Positions 3,294-35,633 of a stretch of 38,200 nt of DNA are shown here, in pieces. The notes under the pieces were generated by a model. That model was not told where the DNA came from and made no database searches. It was given only the letters and a program-made list of their open reading frames with translations. The position numbers were made by a program, and so were the translations under genes. This DNA comes from Hydrurus foetidus (taxonomy: Eukaryota), in assembly GCA_900617105.1 (NCBI GenBank), contig UYFQ01000763.1, positions 1 to 38,200 of the forward strand, in the 5' to 3' direction. Position 1 is the first letter of the stretch. Every line of letters starts with the position of its first letter.

Positions 3294-3510
3294 TGTGACC
3301 CGCACAGCTGTACAGCTGTACGGGTACCGGCGTACGTTCGGTTCGGATCGGGGACGATCCGAGCCATCCGATTCATGGCTTGCCTATCTCTGTGTTTATC
3401 TGTAAGCTAAACACATCTTTAGCCAATAGCACCAGCACCATAGCTGCCTTCCTCTTGCCCCCGCGCCCGTGTCCCATCAGTCCCACCGCCGAGCCCATAG
3501 TTAGGCCACA
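3294..3510 (+). repeat. 3' LTR of gypsy copy A (217 bp)
   Basis: Starts TGTGACC and ends GGCCACA (imperfect terminal inverted repeat). About 90% identical by eye to 34879-35095. Confidence 0.92.
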
Positions 3511-6673: not shown

Positions 6674-6688
6674 TTGATCTCACTCAAC

Positions 6689-6989
6689 TGTTGATACTGA
6701 GGGATCAACTGGTCTGAATCGAAGATCGTGATTCAATTTGGTTGAGTTAGATTATGTCAAAATGGTGCAGATGATCATGTGATGCAGCAGAGAAGCAATT
6801 ACCAATCGGTGATTTGTCAGTTGTCCGTAAGTGTACAATGTTCAGTGGTTGCGTATACGACTTCTACATCGTGAGATTGCTCTCTACTGTGTTTGTCGTG
6901 CAGAGATTCAAGTCTTTGTCTTGGCGAAGAAAAGCGGATTGTTTCTCCAAGTTCCGCATGCGGTGCGTACAAGTCTTGTTGTATCAACA
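6689..6989 (-). repeat. 5' LTR of copia element 1 (301 bp)
   Basis: Bounded by a perfect 9-bp terminal inverted repeat TGTTGATAC...GTATCAACA, directly upstream of gag. The partner LTR is outside the window. Confidence 0.8.
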
Positions 6990-7430
6990 CCGGGAACCGG
7001 GAACCTCAGAGTGGGGCAAACTACAAACTATTTGAATAATATTTGCAAATGATGGTGGTGCTGGAATATTACTATTTGAATATTTATCATGAATAATACA
7101 GTTAATGACAGACATATCGGAAATCTGAGCTGCACAGCTTCTGAAGATGAGCCATGACATCAGGCAAGCAGACAAAGGCAACATCATTACGCACAATGAC
7201 ACGTCAAGTAGTGATGCAAATGATGGTGGTGCTGGCTACGGTCAACGGGCTGATTTTGCTATCCTCCTCCGAGAATTCGGTCGATGACACATTGGTGGGT
7301 CGATGGCACATTTGTGACGAAAAAAAAATGCAAGGGTTTACCCCTTTCCACGACGGAAACCAAGTTCAAAAATGGGTTAGAAGGCAAATATAAAAAGGAG
7401 TAGGCAAAAGTCCGTTGATTGCGCTATCTG

Positions 7431-7845
7431 GAAGCGAGGGAGGATTCGCCGAAGTGGAATCTCCCGTTGTAGACAGATGGCCGACGAGCGATGGCCAAAG
7501 AATTATGGCCAGAGAGTTCTAGCCAATAAATGATGGCGAAGAAATGACGGCGCTCTCCACGGACAACGTCGGAAGTTCATTAACGCGAACTTGATGGCCT
7601 CGGCAATTCTCGAAGAAGAATTGCCGGCAGTTGAATGATCTCGAAGCGAGGGAGGATTCGCCGACGTAGAAGCTCCCGTTGTAATAGGTGACCAAGAAAT
7701 GATGGCGCTTTCCATAGACAACGTCGGAAATCCGTTAACGCGGGGGAAGTTGATGGCCTCGGTAATTCTCGAAGATGAATTGCCAGCAGTTGGATAATCT
7801 CGAGGCGAGGGAGGATTCGCCGAGTTGGAATCTCCCGCTGTAACT
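7431..7845. repeat. imperfect tandem repeat (two ~157-bp units plus a partial third)
   Basis: GCGAGGGAGGATTCGCCGA-type core near 7434, 7646 and 7805. Segment 7541-7664 aligns with 7696-7823. Confidence 0.75.
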
Positions 7846-14844: not shown

Positions 14845-14958
14845 CAGCTCCTCCAAATGAAACTGAGTGAAAAAGGCACTCCAGAAAGTTCGGCAGAATG
14901 TTGTTGATATTGTCGTGGAAAAGCGGGAGATAATGGAGGCGAAATGAAGCCTAACCCG

Positions 14959-15230
14959 TGTTGTATATTACATACGTAGCACTGGTGTTGGTACGAGGTG
15001 TACGTGCACAGGCGACACTTCGTGGGTGATTTGTTACGTGCGCGACACTTTGAATGCGTGATCGAAAATACATATACTAGTTTGAAGTTGCGAACTGTAA
15101 ACTTTGTGGGCATGCTCGTGCGTCTTGCTCCACAAGTTTTAATAACAAGTCATTGATCACAGAGACCATTTTACGAGCCTTGAGAAGATTTCCGTGTAGC
15201 GAATCTTACAGAAATCCGAGTTTCTCAACA
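14959..15230 (+). repeat. 5' LTR of outer copia (272 bp)
   Basis: TGTTG...CAACA; duplicate at 25275-25546. Confidence 0.97.
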
Positions 15231-15240
15231 TATTAAAACT
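15231..15240 (+). promoter_or_regulatory. non-tRNA, self-complementary primer-binding site of outer copia
   Basis: TATTAAAACT is the exact reverse complement of AGTTTTAATA at 15135-15144 inside the LTR. Confidence 0.7.
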
Positions 15241-18200
15241 AGCAGGAGCCATTGTGATGCCTCCCAAACGCGCCGGTGAACCAAAGGAAGCGCCAGAATG
15301 CATTCTGAGAATTGGAAAGTACAACAATGTTGTAGCTTGGAACTTGGAAATGCGATCTGTTGTGGGAACCCTGTATGGGTCCACAGCCAACTTCCTCACC
15401 GATAACCTGAGATACGTCCCGCCCTTTCCTACGGAAGAGGACTATATTCCTGTCAACCCAGCACTCGCGGAAGGAGTGGCTCCTGCTTCCATGCCAGCTG
15501 CGCTACTTGCAAAGCTACGGGAGGACTGCTTCACTGGGAGACGCAAAGAGATTGCGCAGCAACGCAAAGACGAGCAGAAGATTTGGTCACTCATGTGGAC
15601 ACGCATGTCTCCTGCCTCGCAGAGCAAAGTCCAGGAGGAGCCTGGATACGCCGCCGCGCTATTGGCGCGTGACTGCGTACTGCTGTGGGAGTACATACGG
15701 CGTACTCACCTGACGCATATTTACGGGGAGGGAGACCCTATGCTTGCCCTGAACATTCAGGACCAGGAACAAAGGTACAATGCTATCAAACAGGGGGACA
15801 AAGAGTATGTGTCCAACTTCAAGCTGCAGTTCGACGCTCAAGTCCAGGCGTGCAGGGGTGCTGGGATGGCTGAAATCACAGAACCGAAACGTGCCCTAGA
15901 CTTCATATACAAACTAGACCCAAAGAGATTTAGCAAGATGGTCGCGTTCATGAGGAACAATGCACTATGCATGGAGGGCGAGGCCTTCCCACAGACCCTG
16001 GCGGCCGCGTGCCGTATAGCATCCGGCTGGGTAAACGAAGATACCGGCGGGCCCCAGATCCCAGGATCCGAAACCCACTCTGCTTTTGCCACTGAGGAAA
16101 CGAACTTGGTAACGAAGTCTAAGGACCCTGAGAAAGGCAAACGAAGTACGACCAAGAACGACACAACTGCCAAGAAGAAATCTTCCACGGATGTGGAGTG
16201 CTTCGTGTGCGGCGAAATCGGTCACTACGCTAGAGATTGTCCGCTGAAGAAAGGGTCTGCACGCGCTCTCATGGCAGCTACAAGCGCTGTGAACAACAAA
16301 CGAGACTCATCCGACGACGATGAGGTTGCCTATATCACCTCCGCGGAAATGGTGCTGTTCTCAAGAGACGACGTTCTGTTAGACAGTCAGGCGTCCGTCA
16401 ATGTTTTCTGCAACGAGAAGCTGCTCAAGAATATGAGAAAGTCTGAGAAGCGAGTCGTGCTAAACGGCGTCCAAGCCAAAGCCGACGGTGTGATCATAGA
16501 GCTCGAAGGAGATTTCGGTGTGGTTGGAAAAGTATACTTCAGTAAAGACTCGACGGCTAACATCCTGTCCTACGCTGTTATGGTTGATCAAGGCAACGAC
16601 GTCAGCTATGACAAAATCAACGATCGTTTCCTGTTGAAGCCACTCGGAAGTACAAACGTGTATTCCTTCAGTAGGAAGCAAGTAAGCGGAAGTGAAGGTC
16701 GGTTTTACTGCTGCAATGTTACTTCGATGATGGAAGATCGCACGATCAGATATCCTGTAGCAGAACATGCACTCATCGAAACAACGGCTGAAAACATGCA
16801 GAGGTACTCTAAGAGAGAAATTGATTGCGCCAATCGGGCTAGGAAGTTACTGAGCAAAATGGGATTCCCGCCGGTTATTCAAGCGATGAACATCGTGGGC
16901 CGAGGAAGGAAGTTCGATGTGACGGCTCGAGATTTCATAGTGGCGGATGCTATATATGGGAAGGATATTGCTTCTATGAAAGGAAGAACAACTAAGAGTG
17001 CTACGAAGATTGCTGACATTACAATTGGAGCAGCTATCGTACAACAGGAGCAAATACTTTCAATCGACATTATGTACGTAGACGGAGTGGCATCGCTGAT
17101 CGGTCTTGCCAGTCCGTTGGATCTAACCATGGCGGTATCGCTGCTGTCATTCGACACCCTGCAGAGTTCGAGATCAGCAGTAGTTGTAAAGAAGGGGTTG
17201 GATGGATTTATCTCCACTTTAGCATCAAGGAGTTTTGTCACGAGATTGATAATGAGTGATGGGGAGGGAGCCATCGGTGCTATCAAAGATGATCTGAACA
17301 ACCTTGGTATAGAGGTTGACGTCAGCGGGGCTGGCGGTCACGTGGCTAGGATCGAAAGAAGGATCCGAACGGTGAAAGAAAGAGTAAGAGCTTTCATATC
17401 ACATGAACTGCCGTTCACCCTCACTGCTCTGGGCGTAGCCATGCTGGTTCTATTCTGCGTGTCGAGAATTAATTATCAGACATCTGAGTCAAGACATGGT
17501 GAGGATTGTCCGCGCGTAGTATTTACCGGGAGACAAGTTGACGCTAGACTGGATTACAGGATCGGATTCGGAGAATACGCACAGTGTACTGTGCCCAACA
17601 CTGATGCGACGATGGCAGCGAGAACCGAGGATTGCGTAGCTATGCTGCCGACTGGAAATAGAACTGGTTCTGTGAAGATGATGTCAATCAGCACTGGCAG
17701 GCTGGTAACTCGCGACCAGTTCACGATACTTCCTATGCCATCATCAGTTATTGACAAGCTGAACGATATGGCTGTTGCCGAAGGAAGGAAGGTCGTCGTT
17801 AATAGAAACATGGTGTATGGTATACAGAGTGGATTACGAAAAGCAGATGATCCTACATACATGAGATCGTTTGAAGTCGTTACGGTAGACCCGGCGGTTA
17901 CGGCCAACAGTACTACAACAGAGGACGCGTATGAGTTTCCTCAGTTTCCATCGATAGATCAGCAAACGCTTGGGGACGACGTCGGCGTAGGACGAGAGGC
18001 GGAAGCGGAGATGCGGAATACAGACTATTATGACATGCCAGATTTAGATGTGGGACCACTGATTGAGTTTGAACCATATGTCGAATCCAACGCCAACCCT
18101 GATGCGTCAGTGCCAGTGACGCCACCGAGATCTGTTCTCACTCCTGTGTACACGAGATATAAAGCAGCTGCACAGCGGAGCCCACCACTGAATAGAGATC

Positions 18201-19223
18201 TAATGCACTACTACAACGCGAACGATGCTGTGCTGACGAGTGCACTTGCAGATACGGGAGTACGCAACGAGCATGTTATGAACATCTCAGTGAAGGAAGC
18301 ATTGAGAAGTAGGGGTGCGGAGGCCGAAAGGGTAATACTTATGGAGCTTTCCCAGATGATAGACAAAAAAGTATGGACGCCTGTACATATCGGAGTGCTG
18401 TCGGGTACGGAAAAACGCGGGATTATCCGTTCTCAAATGTTCCTGAAGGAAAAATACTTACCGACGGGGGTGTTCGAAAAGCTGAAGGCGCGTCTGGTTG
18501 CTGGCGGGAATCAGCAGGATAAGGACTTGTATGACGACTTGTCGTCTCCCACGGTCTCTACTAGCGCGGTGATGACCGTGTTCGCGATAGCGGCATATGA
18601 GAAGAGAAATGTGTCGGTTGTAGATATCGGAGGAGCTTTCCTGAATGCGACTATGGACACAGGAATTACAGTGTATATGAGACTAGACAAGACCATGTCG
18701 CTCATGGTGTGTAAGATCGATAAAGGATATGCAGATTACGTGGATGACAAGGGATGTGTCGTTGTCCGACTTGATAAAGCGCTCTACGGGTGTGTGGAAT
18801 CGGCAGCATTATGGTACGAGAACCTGTCAGAAGCGTTTAAGACGTGTGGATATGAGAAGAATAAGTACGAGGTATGCGTGTACAATAAACGGAACGAGAA
18901 GGGAATTCAGTGTACTGTGGCCGTGCACGTGGACGACCTTATCATATCCAGTGTAGATGGGGGGATGATTGATGCACTGTGTGACAACCTTAGGAGAAGA
19001 TATGGAATCATTACACGCGCTGATGGGCCTGTTGTGAATTATCTCGGTATGGTCTTTGACCTTACCGTACCTGGGGAAGTAAGAATGACTATGCGCGGAT
19101 ATGTGGAGGATACTATAGCGTATGCTGGTGTACCGGGTACGGCCAAGAGTCCGGCCACGGACGGCCTGTTTGATACTCGAGATGAGGCGGTTGCAGCTGC
19201 AGAGAATGAAAGCTTGTGGTTTC

Positions 19224-19381
19224 TGTTCATGTATGTACAATCATTCGATCTTGACCTCGATCTGCACTTCAATCTGTCTCTGTGCTTTCATTCTCGCTTC
19301 CTTCATAAGTTAATCTAAACCAACGTAAACTTGCCCATCAGTTTACTGAACGTTCTTCAGGTTGCTTCCACTGGTTCAACA
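19224..19381 (+). repeat. 5' LTR of inner copia (158 bp)
   Basis: TGTT...AACA; duplicate at 24364-24525. Confidence 0.96.
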
Positions 19382-19392
19382 GTTTAGATTAA
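19382..19392 (+). promoter_or_regulatory. non-tRNA, self-complementary primer-binding site of inner copia
   Basis: GTTTAGATTAA is the exact reverse complement of TTAATCTAAAC at 19310-19320 inside the LTR. Confidence 0.75.
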
Positions 19393-20528
19393 TGACAGAC
19401 ACAGTCCCGTTCATTACACTCACAAAAGAAAATTTTGCCGAATTTCAAAGGCAAGTCTATGACTATGCGTCAAGCATTTGCCTAGACAACGGTTTTCTAA
19501 CTCATCGGCATGGGCTGCTCTCTTTCGTTGTCACAAACGAAATATGGCAAAATTTGCCTGGAAACGCAGTTCAAGACGACGCAGTGCCGCCCAATATCAT
19601 TCTTCGCCCACGAGATGTTCTCACTCCTCCCGAAATTCCAGCTGAGAACGCCAATGCATGGCGAGTATTTGAATACAGAACAAAAGAATTCGACAAGGTA
19701 GCAGTCGCAGTCCTCCTCCTTACAAGACGCCTCAAGGATGCTTTACCAGCATCAGATCGCAACGAGCTTTCGGATCCGATATTGGGCATGGGCCAATTGA
19801 CCGCATTGCAACTCATGACCCACCTACGCACACAGTATGGTACATTAACATCTGAAGACTTCAAAGCTTTGCACGCACAGTTGACACACAAGCTGGACTC
19901 TGCAACTAACTTCACTGGGTTCGCTGCCGACCAGCGGTTCATTTTCCAACAATTAGCTGCATATGGTCAGCCAATTCCAGAACTCCAGAAATGTGATTTT
20001 CTCCGCAATGGAACTTGCCATCTGTTTCCAGTGCAAAAAGCCATCGATTCCTACCTTACCGCTCATCCGCACACGGCCAACCAAACTTTCAATAACTTGG
20101 TTGCCCACATCACACTGCATTCTCCAAACTTTTCCCAGTCCACTGGAGACATGGGATACACTGCCGCGGCAACCCACATCAATCCAGTTCCAACGTCTGA
20201 AATCTCCTCAACAGTTGCAACACTTCTACTCTCGCCTACCTTCCTCACTGCGTTGGCAACAGCTGCCGCAGCTGCAGCCATCTCTCCTCCACCACGGTCT
20301 CCACGCCCGTCCCGGGCAGGCCGTGGAGGGCGTGGTCAACTCAAAACACCTAACCCATCCACAACAGACTCACAACGTCCCTACTGTTACGCCCATGGAT
20401 ACAATGCTCACTCAAGTGCTGACTGCTACAAAATGCGCTATAGCCCTCTTGCCAAAAACTACACAGATGAGGCACGATTGGCCACCAGTCACACCTCAGT
20501 CGCTGGCGGATCAATTATGCGCTTGTGA
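19392..20528 (+). CDS. gag: copia Gag (378 aa) with C-X2-H-X4-H-X4-C knuckle
   Basis: ATG 10 nt after the LTR (MTDTVP, compare MTEVCL in element 1). Contains YCYAHGYNAHSSADC and ends at an in-frame TGA. Confidence 0.88.
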   Translation: MTDTVPFITLTKENFAEFQRQVYDYASSICLDNGFLTHRHGLLSFVVTNEIWQNLPGNAVQDDAVPPNIILRPRDVLTPPEIPAENANAWRVFEYRTKEFDKVAVAVLLLTRRLKDALPASDRNELSDPILGMGQLTALQLMTHLRTQYGTLTSEDFKALHAQLTHKLDSATNFTGFAADQRFIFQQLAAYGQPIPELQKCDFLRNGTCHLFPVQKAIDSYLTAHPHTANQTFNNLVAHITLHSPNFSQSTGDMGYTAAATHINPVPTSEISSTVATLLLSPTFLTALATAAAAAAISPPPRSPRPSRAGRGGRGQLKTPNPSTTDSQRPYCYAHGYNAHSSADCYKMRYSPLAKNYTDEARLATSHTSVAGGSIMRL

Positions 20529-20610
20529 CGGCTAGGCTTGAGAAGTGATGTGCCTGATGCCACTGTAACTAACACAGTCGATTGCAATCCACCACATCTT
20601 TCTTTCGCCT
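20526..20610 (+). promoter_or_regulatory. putative stop-codon readthrough signal (UGA CGG CUA plus long 3' hairpin)
   Basis: In-frame TGA at 20526-20528. Hairpin 20534-20610 with stacked helices AGGC/GCCT, GAGAAG/TTTCTT, GATGTG/CACATC and ACTGT/ACAGT. Confidence 0.7.
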
Positions 20611-23600
20611 TTTCAGCACCTAAGCTCGCATGCAGCGACACAGGATCCACAAACCTTTTAGTAAGACAATCTGATGCCTCTGCTGTCATCATCGATCCTC
20701 ACCTACAGCCTATTTCAGTAACTCTTCCCAATGGCTCCACCATTAGCTCAAGTTTCAGTGGGACGTTGCTCTTCCCAAATCTTCCTTACCCTATAAATGC
20801 CTACATTTTCCCCGACAAAGTCCTTCATACTTCGCTATTAAGTGTCAGTGAACTTTGTAATGTCGGATGCCTCGCCACATTTACCGACACGCAGTTTCAC
20901 GTTACATACAACAACTCAACAGTCCTACACGGCATCAAAGCAACGTCCGACACACTATGGACGGCCCAACTACCGACACAATCTGCAGCTGCATCGACGC
21001 ACACCACTTCATCTCACGCGGCACGCCTTACCGCAGACGCTGAGTTTGTTTTATTCGTGCACGCTTCCCTAGGCAGCCCGGTCTACTCTACCTTCTTGCG
21101 CGCCATTCGAGCTGGTTACTTATCGTCATGGCCCCGACTCACAACAAACATCGTCTTAGCCCATCCACCACACACAATCGCGACAGCCAAAGGCCACTTT
21201 AATCAATTGCGACAAGGTTTGGACTCTACCAAGACAGACGCAGTCTGTCCAACGACTGATAATGACGATAGTCCGGAGTTACCTCTTACAGCTGAGTCTG
21301 CTAACCATACTTACGTCAAGATGGTTCGTCTCCCACACACCGTCAGCTCCGATTTAACTGGAAAGTTTCCTGTTCAGGCTGACAGTGGCGCACAGTACAT
21401 CCTCATTTCGGAAATGGATGGATATATTCATGCGGAACCCTTAGCATCGCGCCATCACACAGCTTACATCTCAAGCTTTACGCGAACAATCTCTTTCTTC
21501 ACCGCCCTAGGCCGTATCCCCTTCTTCCTACGACTAGATAATGAAACGTCCGCACCACTCGATGTGTTCATGAAGCGGCAAAGCATCAAGATGCAATACT
21601 GTCCACCGGGTATGCATCGATCGAATAGAGCAGAAAGGAGCATCCAAACATTCAAGAATCATGCAATAGCAACACTCTGCACAACCTCAAAAGACTTTCC
21701 TCTCACGTTATGGGATCGTCTATTACCTCAAATCGAACTCTGTTTAAACCATTTACACCCTTATAAACCAAACCCAACGATCTCAGCATACGCCGGTCTG
21801 CACGGTGGAGCTCATGACTTTAGAGCCAATCCGATCGGACCAGCCGGTGCTAAAATTCTCATACATGATAAACCCAGCACTCGGGGATCGTGGGCTCCGC
21901 ATGGAGTTGCAGGTTTCTATCTTGGTCCTGCTCCACAACATTACAGATGCTTCACAGTGTGGTCATCATCAACAAATGCAGTGCGGATCACCGACACACT
22001 CGTCTGGTTTCTCGACAATCTACAGCTGCCGAATCCCTCTGTTCATGATCTACTTCTTGCCGCAATTCATGATCTCACCACCGCCATCAATACCATCACA
22101 AGTGCCCACCCCGCTCTCCATCACCATCGTCAGCTCAGCAATATTCCAAATCTCACTCAACAACTTCATGACATCGCATCTTTATACAATCCTCCTCCGA
22201 ACGTACCTATATTGCCGATCAATGCTGTCGCTGATCCTCCCGATGCCACGGAACAGAGGGTGCACATCCCTCAGGCACCACTTTTGACCCATCTCACTTT
22301 ACCGGCAGTCTCCCAACACCCACTTACACCCACTCCCACTACGGAACAGAGGGTACCTGTTACTGATAGTGTGCCCTCCCCTCCATCGAAGTCTCAGAGT
22401 TCCAACATCGACAATCTCCCAAATGTTCCTCTCCTACCTTCCCAAAACCCACCCACAGTACCAAAACCACCGTCCCCGCCAGTAACTCGACAGCACACTG
22501 CGCGTCTGCGCGCTCATGCTGCACTTAATTTGGCTGCAGATGGCAGCCCTCTTACATACTCTAAAGCAAAAGCTGGGCCTGATGCTGCACGGTGGTTACA
22601 AGCCGAGGCGGAAGAGTTTGATCGCCTGATTACGTCACACACGATAAAACCCATCCATCAGTGCGATCAACCACATGATCGCCGTCGGGATACTACCTAC
22701 TTCAATCCGCAAACAAAACAAAAGATAGATTCTGGTGGTTCCACTACCTATCGCATTCGTGGCACAGCTGGAGGAGACAAAATCAATTACACTGGACCTA
22801 CATCAGCGCAAACAGCTGCCATGCCAGTCGTCAAGCTTCTGCTTCATTCCGTCGTCTCCGAGCACAAACAATGGATGACAATTGATATCAAAGATTATTA
22901 CCTCAACACTCCCCTACTGCGTCCTGAATTCATCCGGATCCCATGTCGCATGATACCCGACACTACAATCGCTACCCACAGTCTCATACCGTATGTCCAT
23001 CAAAATGCGATTCTTTTTGAAGTCAATAAGGGTATGTACGGCCTGCCCCAGGCAGGACTATTGACACAGCAACGCTTAATTGCCCATCTCGCCAACCATG
23101 GCTACCATGAGACATCCACTCCCTGTCTGTTTAGGCACACCTCCAACGGCACTGCTTTCACTCTCGTGATCGATGACTTTGGAATAAAATATTCGTCTAA
23201 GGCTGGAGCTGACTATCTTATTCGCACCCTTCAACTTCTTTACGTTATCACCATCAATTGGACCGGGTCCACATACATCGGATTTACGATTGTTTTCAAC
23301 AATACATCCCGCCAAGTTTCCCTCACAATGCCCGGCTACATCAGCAAAGTATTAGAGCGATTTGCTCCGCACCTTTGTCTCGGTGCTGCCTCTCCAGCCG
23401 TCTACATTCCTCCATCATATGGTGCCCCTACACAAAACGTTACTTCCGACACCTCACCACTGTTACCGCCATTAGCCATCAAAAGACTTCAGGAGCAAGT
23501 CGGTTGCCTGCTTTACTATGCCAGAGGAGTTGATGCTACCATACTTCCAGCAGTCAACCACATCGCCTCCCTACAATCTCAACCTACCGACATCGTTGCT

Positions 23601-24258
23601 GCTGCTATGGATCGTCTTCTTCAGTATTGTGCTCGCTACCCCGACAACGCACTCGTTTTCACGGCCTGCGATATGCGACTCTTTATGCGCTTCATACCTT
23701 TCCCGTCCGAAGGCACGCTCCGTCGCAGGTGGCATTTTCTACCTTGGCAACAACAACCAACCAACAACTATCAACGGTCCCTGTCTAACTCTTAGTACCA
23801 TCATTCCTGTAGTCGTATCATCTGTTGCTGAAGCAGAGTATGCAGCAGTGTTTATGAATGCCAAAGAGGGGGCCTCTATCCGAGCTATTCTCGACAGTCT
23901 CGGCTACCCACAACCTACAACCGACATTCTGTGTGACAACATGTGCGCTGTTGGTCTCGCCTCCGATACTGTCACTCCCAAGAAAACAAAATCGATCGAT
24001 ATGCAGTTTCACTGGATAAGAGATAGAGTTCGTCAGAAACAATTCAGTGTCACTTGGCGTCAAGGAGCGCACAACTTGGCTGACTTCTTCACGAAGGCCC
24101 TCCCAGTGCATCTTCATCGCACCCTTATGCCTTTTCTCGTCAGCATCCCGCCAACACCTAGCACAAAGTTTCAAAGCTCACAAGCTCGTCGCTCATGTGC
24201 GTGGAAAATGCTTCGTCACTATGCGAGAAATCATGACTGCAAATTGCTATCTGAGTAA
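20529..24258 (+). pseudogene. pol: copia Pol (PR-IN-RT-RNase H), frameshifted at the start of RNase H
   Basis: SDTGST, SDLTGKFP/RLDNETS/RAERSIQTFKNH, YRIRGTAGGDKI, TIDIKDYYL, KGMYGLPQAG, LVIDDFG, SSVAEAEY, CDN and NLADFFTK. The frame changes near 23688, where the expected x-S-D before ASYLS is missing. Confidence 0.92.
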
Positions 24259-24363
24259 TATAACTAGTAATTTTGTTAAAGCACTTCACTTTGTTGATTA
24301 CGCTCAAAATTCCTTAGTATGGCTTATTCTTCATTCATTGGCACATTACAGCTTGAGAGGGTG

Positions 24364-24525
24364 TGTTCATGTATGTACATACAATCATCCGATCTTGACC
24401 TCGATCTGCACTTCAATCTGTCTCTGTGCTTTCATTCTCGCTTCCTTCATAAGTTAATCTAAACCAACGTAAACTTGCCCATCAGTTTACTGAACGTTCT
24501 TCAGGTTGCTTCCACTGGTTCAACA
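24364..24525 (+). repeat. 3' LTR of inner copia (162 bp)
   Basis: Direct repeat of 19224-19381, followed by TSD GTTTC. Confidence 0.96.
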
Positions 24526-25274
24526 GTTTCATAGTGTAGTTGCCAAACTGAGTTATCTAGCAAAACGTGCAAAGCCAGAGTGCCTGACCGCTGTTGCATA
24601 TCTGGCTACGAGAGTCACCAAGTGTACTGAGGATGACTTAGAGAAGTTGAAGCGTGTGCTGAGATATGTAGCGAATACTCGTGAAAAAGGGGTTGTGCTC
24701 AGACCAGGGGTGATGGGAATATGCGTGAGAGTATACGTGGATGCGGCGTACGGGGTGCACAGTGATGGGAAGTCACATTCGGGGAGTTGCATTGTCATAG
24801 GAGATGTTGGATCAGTGCACTGTAAATCGAGTAAACAGAGCATAGTTACTAAGTCCAGTACAGAAGCTGAGCTGGTAGCGTTATCAGACTCAGCCAATCA
24901 AGGCTTATACTTGCGCAATTTCCTGAAAGAGCAAGGACACTCGATGGGACCAGTAATCATATATCAAGACAACACGTCGTGCATGGCGCTTGTTGCTAGA
25001 GGGAGATCTGGTGCAGAGAGGACAAGGCATATCGGAATCAGATATTTCTGGTTACAAGAGAGAATCGAAACTGGAGAAGCGGTTGTGGAGTACAAGGGTA
25101 CAAAGGAGATGTATGCTAACATTCTCACTAAACATCTGCAGGGCTCTCAATTCATTTACGAAAGGGATTCCCTAACGGGGTGGATTTGAGGAGAGATATT
25201 TTGCCTGACGAGTAGGCCGCAATATAAATGATATGCTATGCAAACTGTTTGAATACTAGCCAGTACTAGGGGTG

Positions 25275-25546
25275 TGTTGTATATTACATACGTAGCACTG
25301 GTGTTGGTACGAGGTGTACGTGCACAGGCGACACTTCGTGGGTGATTTGTTACGTGCGCGACACTTTGAATGCGTGATCGAAAATACATATACTAGTTTG
25401 AAGTTGCGAACTGTAAACTTTGTGGGCATGCTCGTGCGTCTTGCTCCACAAGTTTTAATAACAAGTCATTGATCACAGAGACCATTTTACGAGCCTTGAG
25501 AAGATTTCCGTGTAGCGAATCTTACAGAAATCCAAGTTTCTCAACA
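25275..25546 (+). repeat. 3' LTR of outer copia (272 bp)
   Basis: Direct repeat of 14959-15230, preceded by AGGGGTG and followed by TSD ACCCG. Confidence 0.97.
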
Positions 25547-26279
25547 ACCCGCCGTTACTACAAGTTTAGTACGGCATTTATAGTTTATAGGTTGTAGGTG
25601 ATCGCGAAGATTTGCATTCCCACTGCAGCGCTGTCACCTGCCAGGTCCTCTGTGCGTAATCATTTCCGATTTAGAGAAACACCTTATGCTATCAGTTTCA
25701 TGACCGAGAAAGGGAACACGTTGAACAGCAGCGATTAGTTGATAAGAAACCAACTTTTTAGTGAGGTTCTTGGATCTGATTCCATCAAAGGGATCAGAAG
25801 GACAGAAGATTGACGCACGCTTCTTTCGTTCACGCCCCAAATGATGCCAACCTAGGCATAACTCACAATGATGCCTTCTGGTTGCTCCGGAGGATATCAT
25901 ATGAGTCGAGTGGGGATGTGTCGCAGAAGTGAAGTCACGTAGACCGATGACGCGTGGCAGAGTACTTTCACGACTTTCCGAACATACAGGTATGAAATAG
26001 GACAAAACTAGTTGAAGAAAAAAGTGTTTTGAAACAAATCAGTTCTAGTTACACTGTAATTGTAGGGAGCCATCGTAAACATGAAAATGCAAAATATTAA
26101 GGAAAATTGCTTCTATATAAAAAATGCGGACTGTCTGTATATCTAGAGCAACGTTACTAGCAACAATTGGTACAAATATACAAGTTTGTGCATCATCTCA
26201 TCTATCGGGAGTAACTTGTAATAAATTGATACACTTAAAATATAACATCTGTTCACATCACTTCACATTTGTCTCATAA

Positions 26280-33763: not shown

Positions 33764-33939
33764 TACCTAGTACAACTTACGTTTTTAGAAAAAAGAACCT
33801 CCGGCACAAAAGGCCGGAAAAAATTCTACCGGGACCAGTTACAGCGAGAAGTACCTAGTACAACTTACGTTTTTAGAAAAAAGAACCTCCGGCACAAAAG
33901 GCCGGAAAAAATTCTACCGGGACCAGTTACAGCGAGAAG
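33764..33939. repeat. exact 88-bp tandem duplication in the subterminal region of the TIR element
   Basis: 33764-33851 = 33852-33939. The GGGACC[AG]GTTACAG[CA]GAGAA motif also occurs near 33672 and 33697. Confidence 0.92.
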
Positions 33940-34878: not shown

Positions 34879-35095
34879 TGTGACCCGCACAGCTGTACAG
34901 CTGTACGGGTACAGGCGTACGTTCGGTTCGGATCGGGGACGATCCGAGCCATCCGATTCATGACTTGCCTATCGCTGTGTTTATCTGTAAGCTAACCACA
35001 TCTCTTTAGCAACAGCACCAGCACACCAGCTGCCTTCCCCTTGCCCACGCGTCCCGTTCCATCAGACCCACCGCTGAACCCAGAGTTAGGCCATA
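34879..35095 (+). repeat. 5' LTR of gypsy copy B
   Basis: TGTGACC...GGCCATA (terminal CA appears as TA); aligns end to end with 3294-3510. Confidence 0.9.
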
Positions 35096-35633
35096 ATACT
35101 AGTATTTGGACCAACTTGGTGCTCTTTTTAGAGACCAGTTCCAAAAAGCGTTCCAAAAACATCGCCACGACCCACAAAACGGCGTGCAAACAAGCTAGTA
35201 ACTTGGAAACAACGTCGAAAGACACTACAAAGGCTACGTCTAATCGACAGCCTCTGAAACGCTTTCGTTAAAAAGTTCGAGTCGTCGATATTTTCGCGAC
35301 AAAATCGTGACGGCTTCAAAACTCGAAGCCTAACGAAGCAAGTAGCTCTGAGTCGAGCAAAAGCAAGTCCCATCGTTAGAGAAACGAAAGCTGGCCAAAA
35401 CGCCCGCAGTTTAGTTCCTTGAGAGGTTCAAAACGCCAGGCAACTTTTCGAGCGATTTCCGACGAAATCGCGCGAAAGTAAACCACCAACAGCTCCATCA
35501 GTTAAAGGATCCTACGATCCCACGACATCATAGCTGCGGGATATATCCTCAGCTCCATAGAGAGCCGCGTCCGAGTTCCGTCGCTGTCCAAGACCCCAAG
35601 ATCCAGACGTTTCAAGCTCAAGACAAAAGTCCC

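Follow-up and report, generated by a model that had tools for sequence, protein, structure and literature searches.

Predicted Self-Priming from the LTR in Two Distant Ty1/copia Lineages at a Locus of Hydrurus foetidus

A locus of Hydrurus foetidus raises the question of how a copia element whose predicted primer-binding site (PBS) lacks TGG starts reverse transcription. The window, meaning the whole stretch of DNA that was analyzed, is 38,200 nt long (assembly GCA_900617105.1, contig UYFQ01000763.1, positions 1 to 38,200, forward strand) and includes an outer copia element interrupted by an inner one. The original prediction, made from the letters of the window, held that the first bases after the 5′ LTR of the outer element pair with that LTR, that the inner element has the same geometry, and that priming without tRNA may be general across several stramenopile copia clades. 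To our knowledge, self-priming has been demonstrated only in the gypsy-type element Tf1; among copia elements, one plant lineage is predicted to use it. Here, LTR/PBS pairing was followed through relatives of both elements.

Results

The outer element is a Ty1/copia LTR retrotransposon, with LTRs, target-site duplication, polypurine tract and copia-type RT all present (Table 1). Its two 272-nt LTRs differ by a single mismatch, at 15218. The LTR limits, the duplication ACCCG and the purine tract define the boundary, so the LTR end is fixed independently of the pairing. The gag-pol is one frame, split between RT and RNase H by the inner copia insertion. Pfam domains zf-CCHC and RVT_2 (RVT_2 E 1e-23) were found in it, bearing out the single open reading frame with a CCHC knuckle and copia RT that had been described. 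No integrase domain was returned by the Pfam search of this gag-pol; motifs in the translation presumably place the integrase before RT. Membership of the Tf1/sushi group (chromovirus) was rejected, as that group is defined by RVT_1 and the order PR-RT-RH-IN and the outer element has RVT_2 and copia order.

Table 1. Positions in the window of the outer element, its predicted priming signals and other copia elements
Feature	Position	Strand	Remarks
Target-site duplication ACCCG	14954..14958 (left copy); 25547-25551 (right copy)	+ (left copy)	Flanks both outer LTRs
Outer 5′ LTR	14959..15230	+	272 nt, TG...CA, inverted termini
GCTCC	15128..15132	+	Complementary to GGAGC at 15245-15249; lies upstream of predicted start
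Predicted transcription start (inferred)	15133..15135	+	CA whose A is 15134, or A15135
Predicted self-primer	15135..15144	+	Reverse complement of PBS; predicted cut after 15144
U5 stem-loop adjoining primer duplex	15180..15228	+	z −1.64 alone (12/200 shuffles)
Predicted PBS, no TGG	15231..15240	+	First 10 nt after 5′ LTR
Outer gag-pol, 5′ part	15257..19223	+	CCHC knuckle, protease, integrase region, RT
Inner nested copia, second lineage	19224..24525	+	LTRs 19224-19381 and 24364-24525; TSD GTTTC
Outer pol, 3′ part	24531..25189	+	RNase H; phase matches 5′ part
Polypurine tract, ending GGGGTG	25263..25274	+	Precedes outer 3′ LTR
Outer 3′ LTR	25275..25546	+	
Putative 5′ LTR and PBS of third, truncated inner-type copia	6677..6989	−	7 nt perfect

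The motifs quoted in the original prediction were all located where it had placed them. Positions 15231–15240 are the exact 10-nt reverse complement of 15135–15144; the match begins at the first post-LTR base and does not continue into the LTR. Pairing of at least 10 nt arose in 19 of 20,000 dinucleotide shuffles of the outer LTR and is reached by 0.16% of 37,870 arbitrary positions in the window. The claimed exact pairing at the LTR boundary is thus confirmed, with the end defined by the duplication. The fold of 15126–15252 is stable (z −4.12; 0/200 shuffles as stable). An Rfam search around the PBS gave no tRNA-like match and nothing of note, and tRNA genes numbered zero in the window and in each of the 16 relative loci scanned. 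About 6% of two oligo-dT RNA runs was searched and gave no reads over 15075–15620, the outer R/U5/PBS region. Contigs from runs X1 and X2 contained several related variants of the LTR (window 14960–15230), including ones with other U5 sequences.

Relatives were collected through an alignment of 48 proteins, consisting of the window and 47 of the 120 integrase-region matches listed. From this, 79 metagenomic loci were retrieved, and 32 had a testable pre-gag interval (14 circular contigs read across the terminal overlap, 17 linear and one 5′-only). RT identity of the outer-lineage loci to the window is 25–53%, so they are not near-copies. Cluster look-ups yielded no host name for the outer lineage, whose metagenomic members may sit in stramenopiles. 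A viral contig search found no relative of the outer or inner lineage.

In a boundary-free test, the longest perfect complement 30–300 nt upstream was taken for each interval, with the LTR end not assumed. It begins right after CA, or at its A, in 26/32 intervals, against about 12% expected from CA frequency; some locus pairs are related, so counts in this lineage are not fully independent. Ends placed by hand at the terminal motif in five of the six other loci gave pairing of 8, 10, 10, 7 and 9 nt. Over 31 loci and the window, 30/32 pair over 9–20 nt (median 12). Pairing was also found in split contigs L074 (15 nt, end set by the 3′ LTR copy) and L041 (10 nt). Weak cases are L033, on a long branch, with no pairing, L058 with only 7 nt and L002 with 8 nt. 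An automatic LTR-end rule, poorer than the boundary-free test, called 21 of 34 intervals (15 of the 21 with at least 9 nt) and left 13 uncalled. LTRs end in CAACG or CAATA rather than CAACA in L049, L074, L080, L082 and L086, and the duplex begins directly after.

The window match is only 10 nt long and has 2 G-C pairs, which leaves room for a chance match between AT-rich sequences. The shuffles and the boundary-free test speak against chance, as does the pairing in the inner lineage described below. A swap control, in which the PBS of one element was set against the LTR of another, preserves AT-richness and any shared core; it reached at least 9 nt in 3 of 992 combinations and refutes chance, which we regard as barely worth entertaining. 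The PBS 10-mers are distinct in all 32 outer-lineage elements. The lineage therefore shows covariation: letters differ between elements and the pairing is kept.

An AT-rich core is shared at PBS positions 1–6 (T 21, A 25, A 22, T 25, T 18, A 20, of 32). The core reads mostly TAATTA. It lies where the primer 3′ end is predicted and could act as a signal for cleavage or processing. It also bears on another candidate primer, a tRNA fragment such as the half tRNA-Lys of the fungal copia FunCo1, with the LTR match secondary. The FunCo1 PBS is an internal tRNA-Lys match starting ATTAA (PMC5445492), and the window PBS has ATTAA at positions 2–6, within the clade-wide core. However, tRNA-primed lineages retain their PBS type (PMC6317226), whereas no two outer-lineage 10-mers are identical, and at least 8 of 10 letters agree in only 11 of 496 pairs. 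A tRNA fragment would also leave the perfect 9–20-nt matches of each PBS to its own LTR unexplained, and the Rfam result around the PBS gives it no help. We consider this primer very improbable.

The far end of the duplex was examined in the 31 elements with at least 8 nt of pairing, scoring CA within one base of that end. This three-position window was picked after the boundary-free results had been viewed, and the margin is large: CA occurs in 23/31 (4.3 expected), YCA in 20/31 (2.4 expected) and YCANT in 13/31 (0.7 expected), each count reached in 0 of 100,000 simulations. At the near end, used as a control, the counts for the 31 elements are 3, 2 and 0. The A of CA is the first paired base in 14 of the 31. 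In the window, the context is ACAAGT, with CA at 15133–15134; CA is present and YCANT is not matched. CA is also a common poly(A) cut site, but a poly(A) cut at the far end would put the partner into U5, and strand transfer would then have no R to use. In oomycetes, the initiator reads YCAYTYY, and in mammals transcription usually starts at the A of the initiator (PMC3599244). The initiator-like CA is an indirect sign that the LTR partner of the PBS may be the RNA 5′ end. In the outer lineage, the PBS would then predict the transcription start to within one or two bases.

These two ends also bear on a selected duplex that is not a primer, serving instead in RNA circularization (through the 3′ R copy), dimerization, packaging or PBS masking while another primer is used. 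Covariation demonstrates pairing rather than priming, and a partner within R would be present at both RNA ends. Against such a role, the duplex begins exactly at the LTR end, the required place of a primer 3′ end (26/32), and the outer-lineage duplex ends at the initiator-like CA (23/31). Nothing else resembling a conserved primer site is seen, and TGG occurs in none of the 32 PBSs. A duplex kept for a purpose other than priming is improbable, somewhat less so than a tRNA fragment.

Two additions to the pairing had been proposed, an extension through GGAGC/GCTCC and a U5 fold. Both are present in the fold of 15126–15252 and neither is general. As a clade feature, the extension was rejected, occurring in 1 of 31 elements, which equals the swap rate of 3.2%. 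Because the CA of the window lies at 15133–15134, GCTCC would sit upstream of the start, and the extension is probably incidental. A conserved U5 stem was likewise rejected for the outer clade (mean z −0.46; 5/31 below −2), and pairing within the final 12 nt is not enriched (4.7 vs 4.9 paired bases, 31 elements). Tf1 is said to need an inverted-repeat stem in U5 beside its primer duplex; the outer lineage differs in lacking a conserved one.

The inner element represents a second lineage. The RT cores of the outer and inner elements are 21% identical (profile comparison E 2e-31), so the word distant, as first applied to these lineages, is correct. The inner PBS (19382–19392, 11 nt) pairs with 19310–19320, a result reached in 1 of 20,000 shuffles. 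An alignment of 46 proteins led to 13 loci, all from prokaryotic genome bins. These thirteen copia-pol contigs (L080–L092) in bacterial bins are probably eukaryotic contamination. With an end-motif list that was broadened to CAATA and CATCA after the loci had been viewed, all seven testable loci of the 13 pair over 8–12 nt at the LTR end, each at no more than 2 of 500 shuffles. CA sits 3–7 nt beyond the duplex, unlike in the outer lineage, so the inner match stops short of the predicted start. For the third copia, pairing extends to 11/12 with one mismatch; its 7 perfect nt alone are not significant (48/500). The anticipated enrichment was thus positive in both lineages, far above shuffles and with letters differing per element. 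Of the proposal that such priming is general across clades, the geometry stands in both lineages (30/32 and 7/7), and the extension and U5 hairpin do not.

In a quick RT tree, the inner lineage clusters, at a support of 100, with three proteins of the diatom Fragilaria crotonensis. The same tree, which contains no tRNA-primed references, links the outer and inner lineages by a long branch. The inner family (19224–24360) shows weak sense-strand transcription, with low, 3′-biased read depth on pol, and some of its RNA reads cross the LTR end into other flanks. A single stop codon lies between inner gag and pol. The inner pol frame breaks near 23700, where reads carry extra letters. The last RNase H motif (window 25100–25189) reads A-N-x-x-T-K in 44 of 48 outer rows, four being without the motif, and the inner lineage has D at this position in 41 of 46 rows. 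The aspartate of the last RNase H motif is the fourth carboxylate of RNase H.

Other features of the window were recorded. For the neighbouring ABC1 kinase, the closest named relative was a protein of Ochromonas (70%), which makes a chrysophyte the likely host. A 10-nt palindrome, ATACTAGTAT, comes after the 5′ LTR of a gypsy-like element (34879–35110) and there is no TGG; this recalls the palindromic site of fungal GalEa. A gypsy pol with a chromodomain ends in a related LTR at 3294. Regions 7426–7843 and 33764–33939 contain a repeat family spaced 155–159 nt and an exact 88-nt tandem duplication.

Discussion

LTR/PBS pairing is a real, clade-wide feature of the outer lineage. From it, a known mechanism is inferred in two deep algal copia lineages. 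Judged from sequence, the outer element very probably primes reverse transcription with its own RNA 5′ end, by Tf1-like self-priming. Transcription would begin at 15134/15135, and the first 10–11 nt of the RNA would fold back onto 15231–15240. The RNase H of the element, whose frame is present, would cut after 15144, giving a 3′-OH paired beside U5. RT would then synthesize minus-strand strong-stop DNA from 15230 back to 15145, and this product would jump to the 3′ R copy; the poly(A) site would therefore have to lie downstream of 15145. A retained primer would be copied in plus-strand synthesis, and the PBS would be rewritten each cycle, which would explain a perfect match that stops at the predicted start. 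The Tf1 primer is reportedly retained.

What is new here is the pairing in two lineages, together with the initiator signal and the result that neither the U5 stem nor the extension is general. If true, self-priming in two deep copia lineages of one genome would make tRNA-independent priming far commoner than described, and annotation tools that demand a tRNA site would miss self-primed elements. The result is relevant to an earlier proposal in which hairpin priming preceded tRNA priming (PMC3601003). A broader reading takes self-priming as inherited and standard in a large, deep group of stramenopile copia (RTs 21% identical), independent of the U5 stem of Tf1 and older than tRNA priming in copia; it is tentative and on balance doubtful. 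A literature search that took in neither subscription papers nor Repbase found no report of self-priming for stramenopiles, diatoms or Phytophthora.

The closest described mechanism is that of Tf1, in which the RNA's first 11 bases anneal to the PBS and cleavage by RNase H falls between bases 11 and 12 (PMC7175516). Tj1 has been proposed to self-prime like Tf1 (PMC4600332). In Tf1 and Tf2 of Schizosaccharomyces pombe, in Tj1 and in the Tf1/sushi group of Ty3/gypsy elements, the PBS lies right after the LTR, as in the outer element (PMC7175516, PMC4600332). The Tf1 PBS complements the first bases of the RNA, whereas that of the outer element complements a stretch of its own LTR, the predicted RNA start. 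The primer is about 11 nt in Tf1 and is predicted to be 9–20 nt across the outer lineage. The Tf1 group is Ty3/gypsy and the outer element is copia, with RVT_2 and an integrase region before RT. Priming in Tf1 was demonstrated by experiment, whereas that of the outer element is read from its sequence.

Among copia elements, self-priming has been predicted for the plant Ty1/copia TAR lineage (Houba, Osr-1) where a complement of at least 10 bp starts 0–5 bp after the 5′ LTR (PMC6317226). The outer element, with 10 nt starting directly after its LTR, would be called self-priming on the same terms. Since self-priming was already predicted for TAR, the outer element is not the first copia case. TAR hosts are plants, another kingdom, and the likeness to TAR rests on the PBS criterion; no named plant copia occurs among the 120 integrase-region matches listed for either element. 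The diatom CoDi copia elements (CoDiI, CoDiII, CoDi6) are divergent stramenopile copia, a description that may also fit the inner lineage. The main text of the paper that defines them does not discuss primer sites; the term tRNA is absent and the sole PBS is a buffer (PMC2806351). The fungal elements GalEa, with its hairpin site, and FunCo1 are copia without the standard TGG primer site, like the outer element (PMC5445492). In GalEa, two 9-mers pair downstream of the LTR with no LTR complement, whereas the partner in the outer element lies inside the LTR (PMC5445492).
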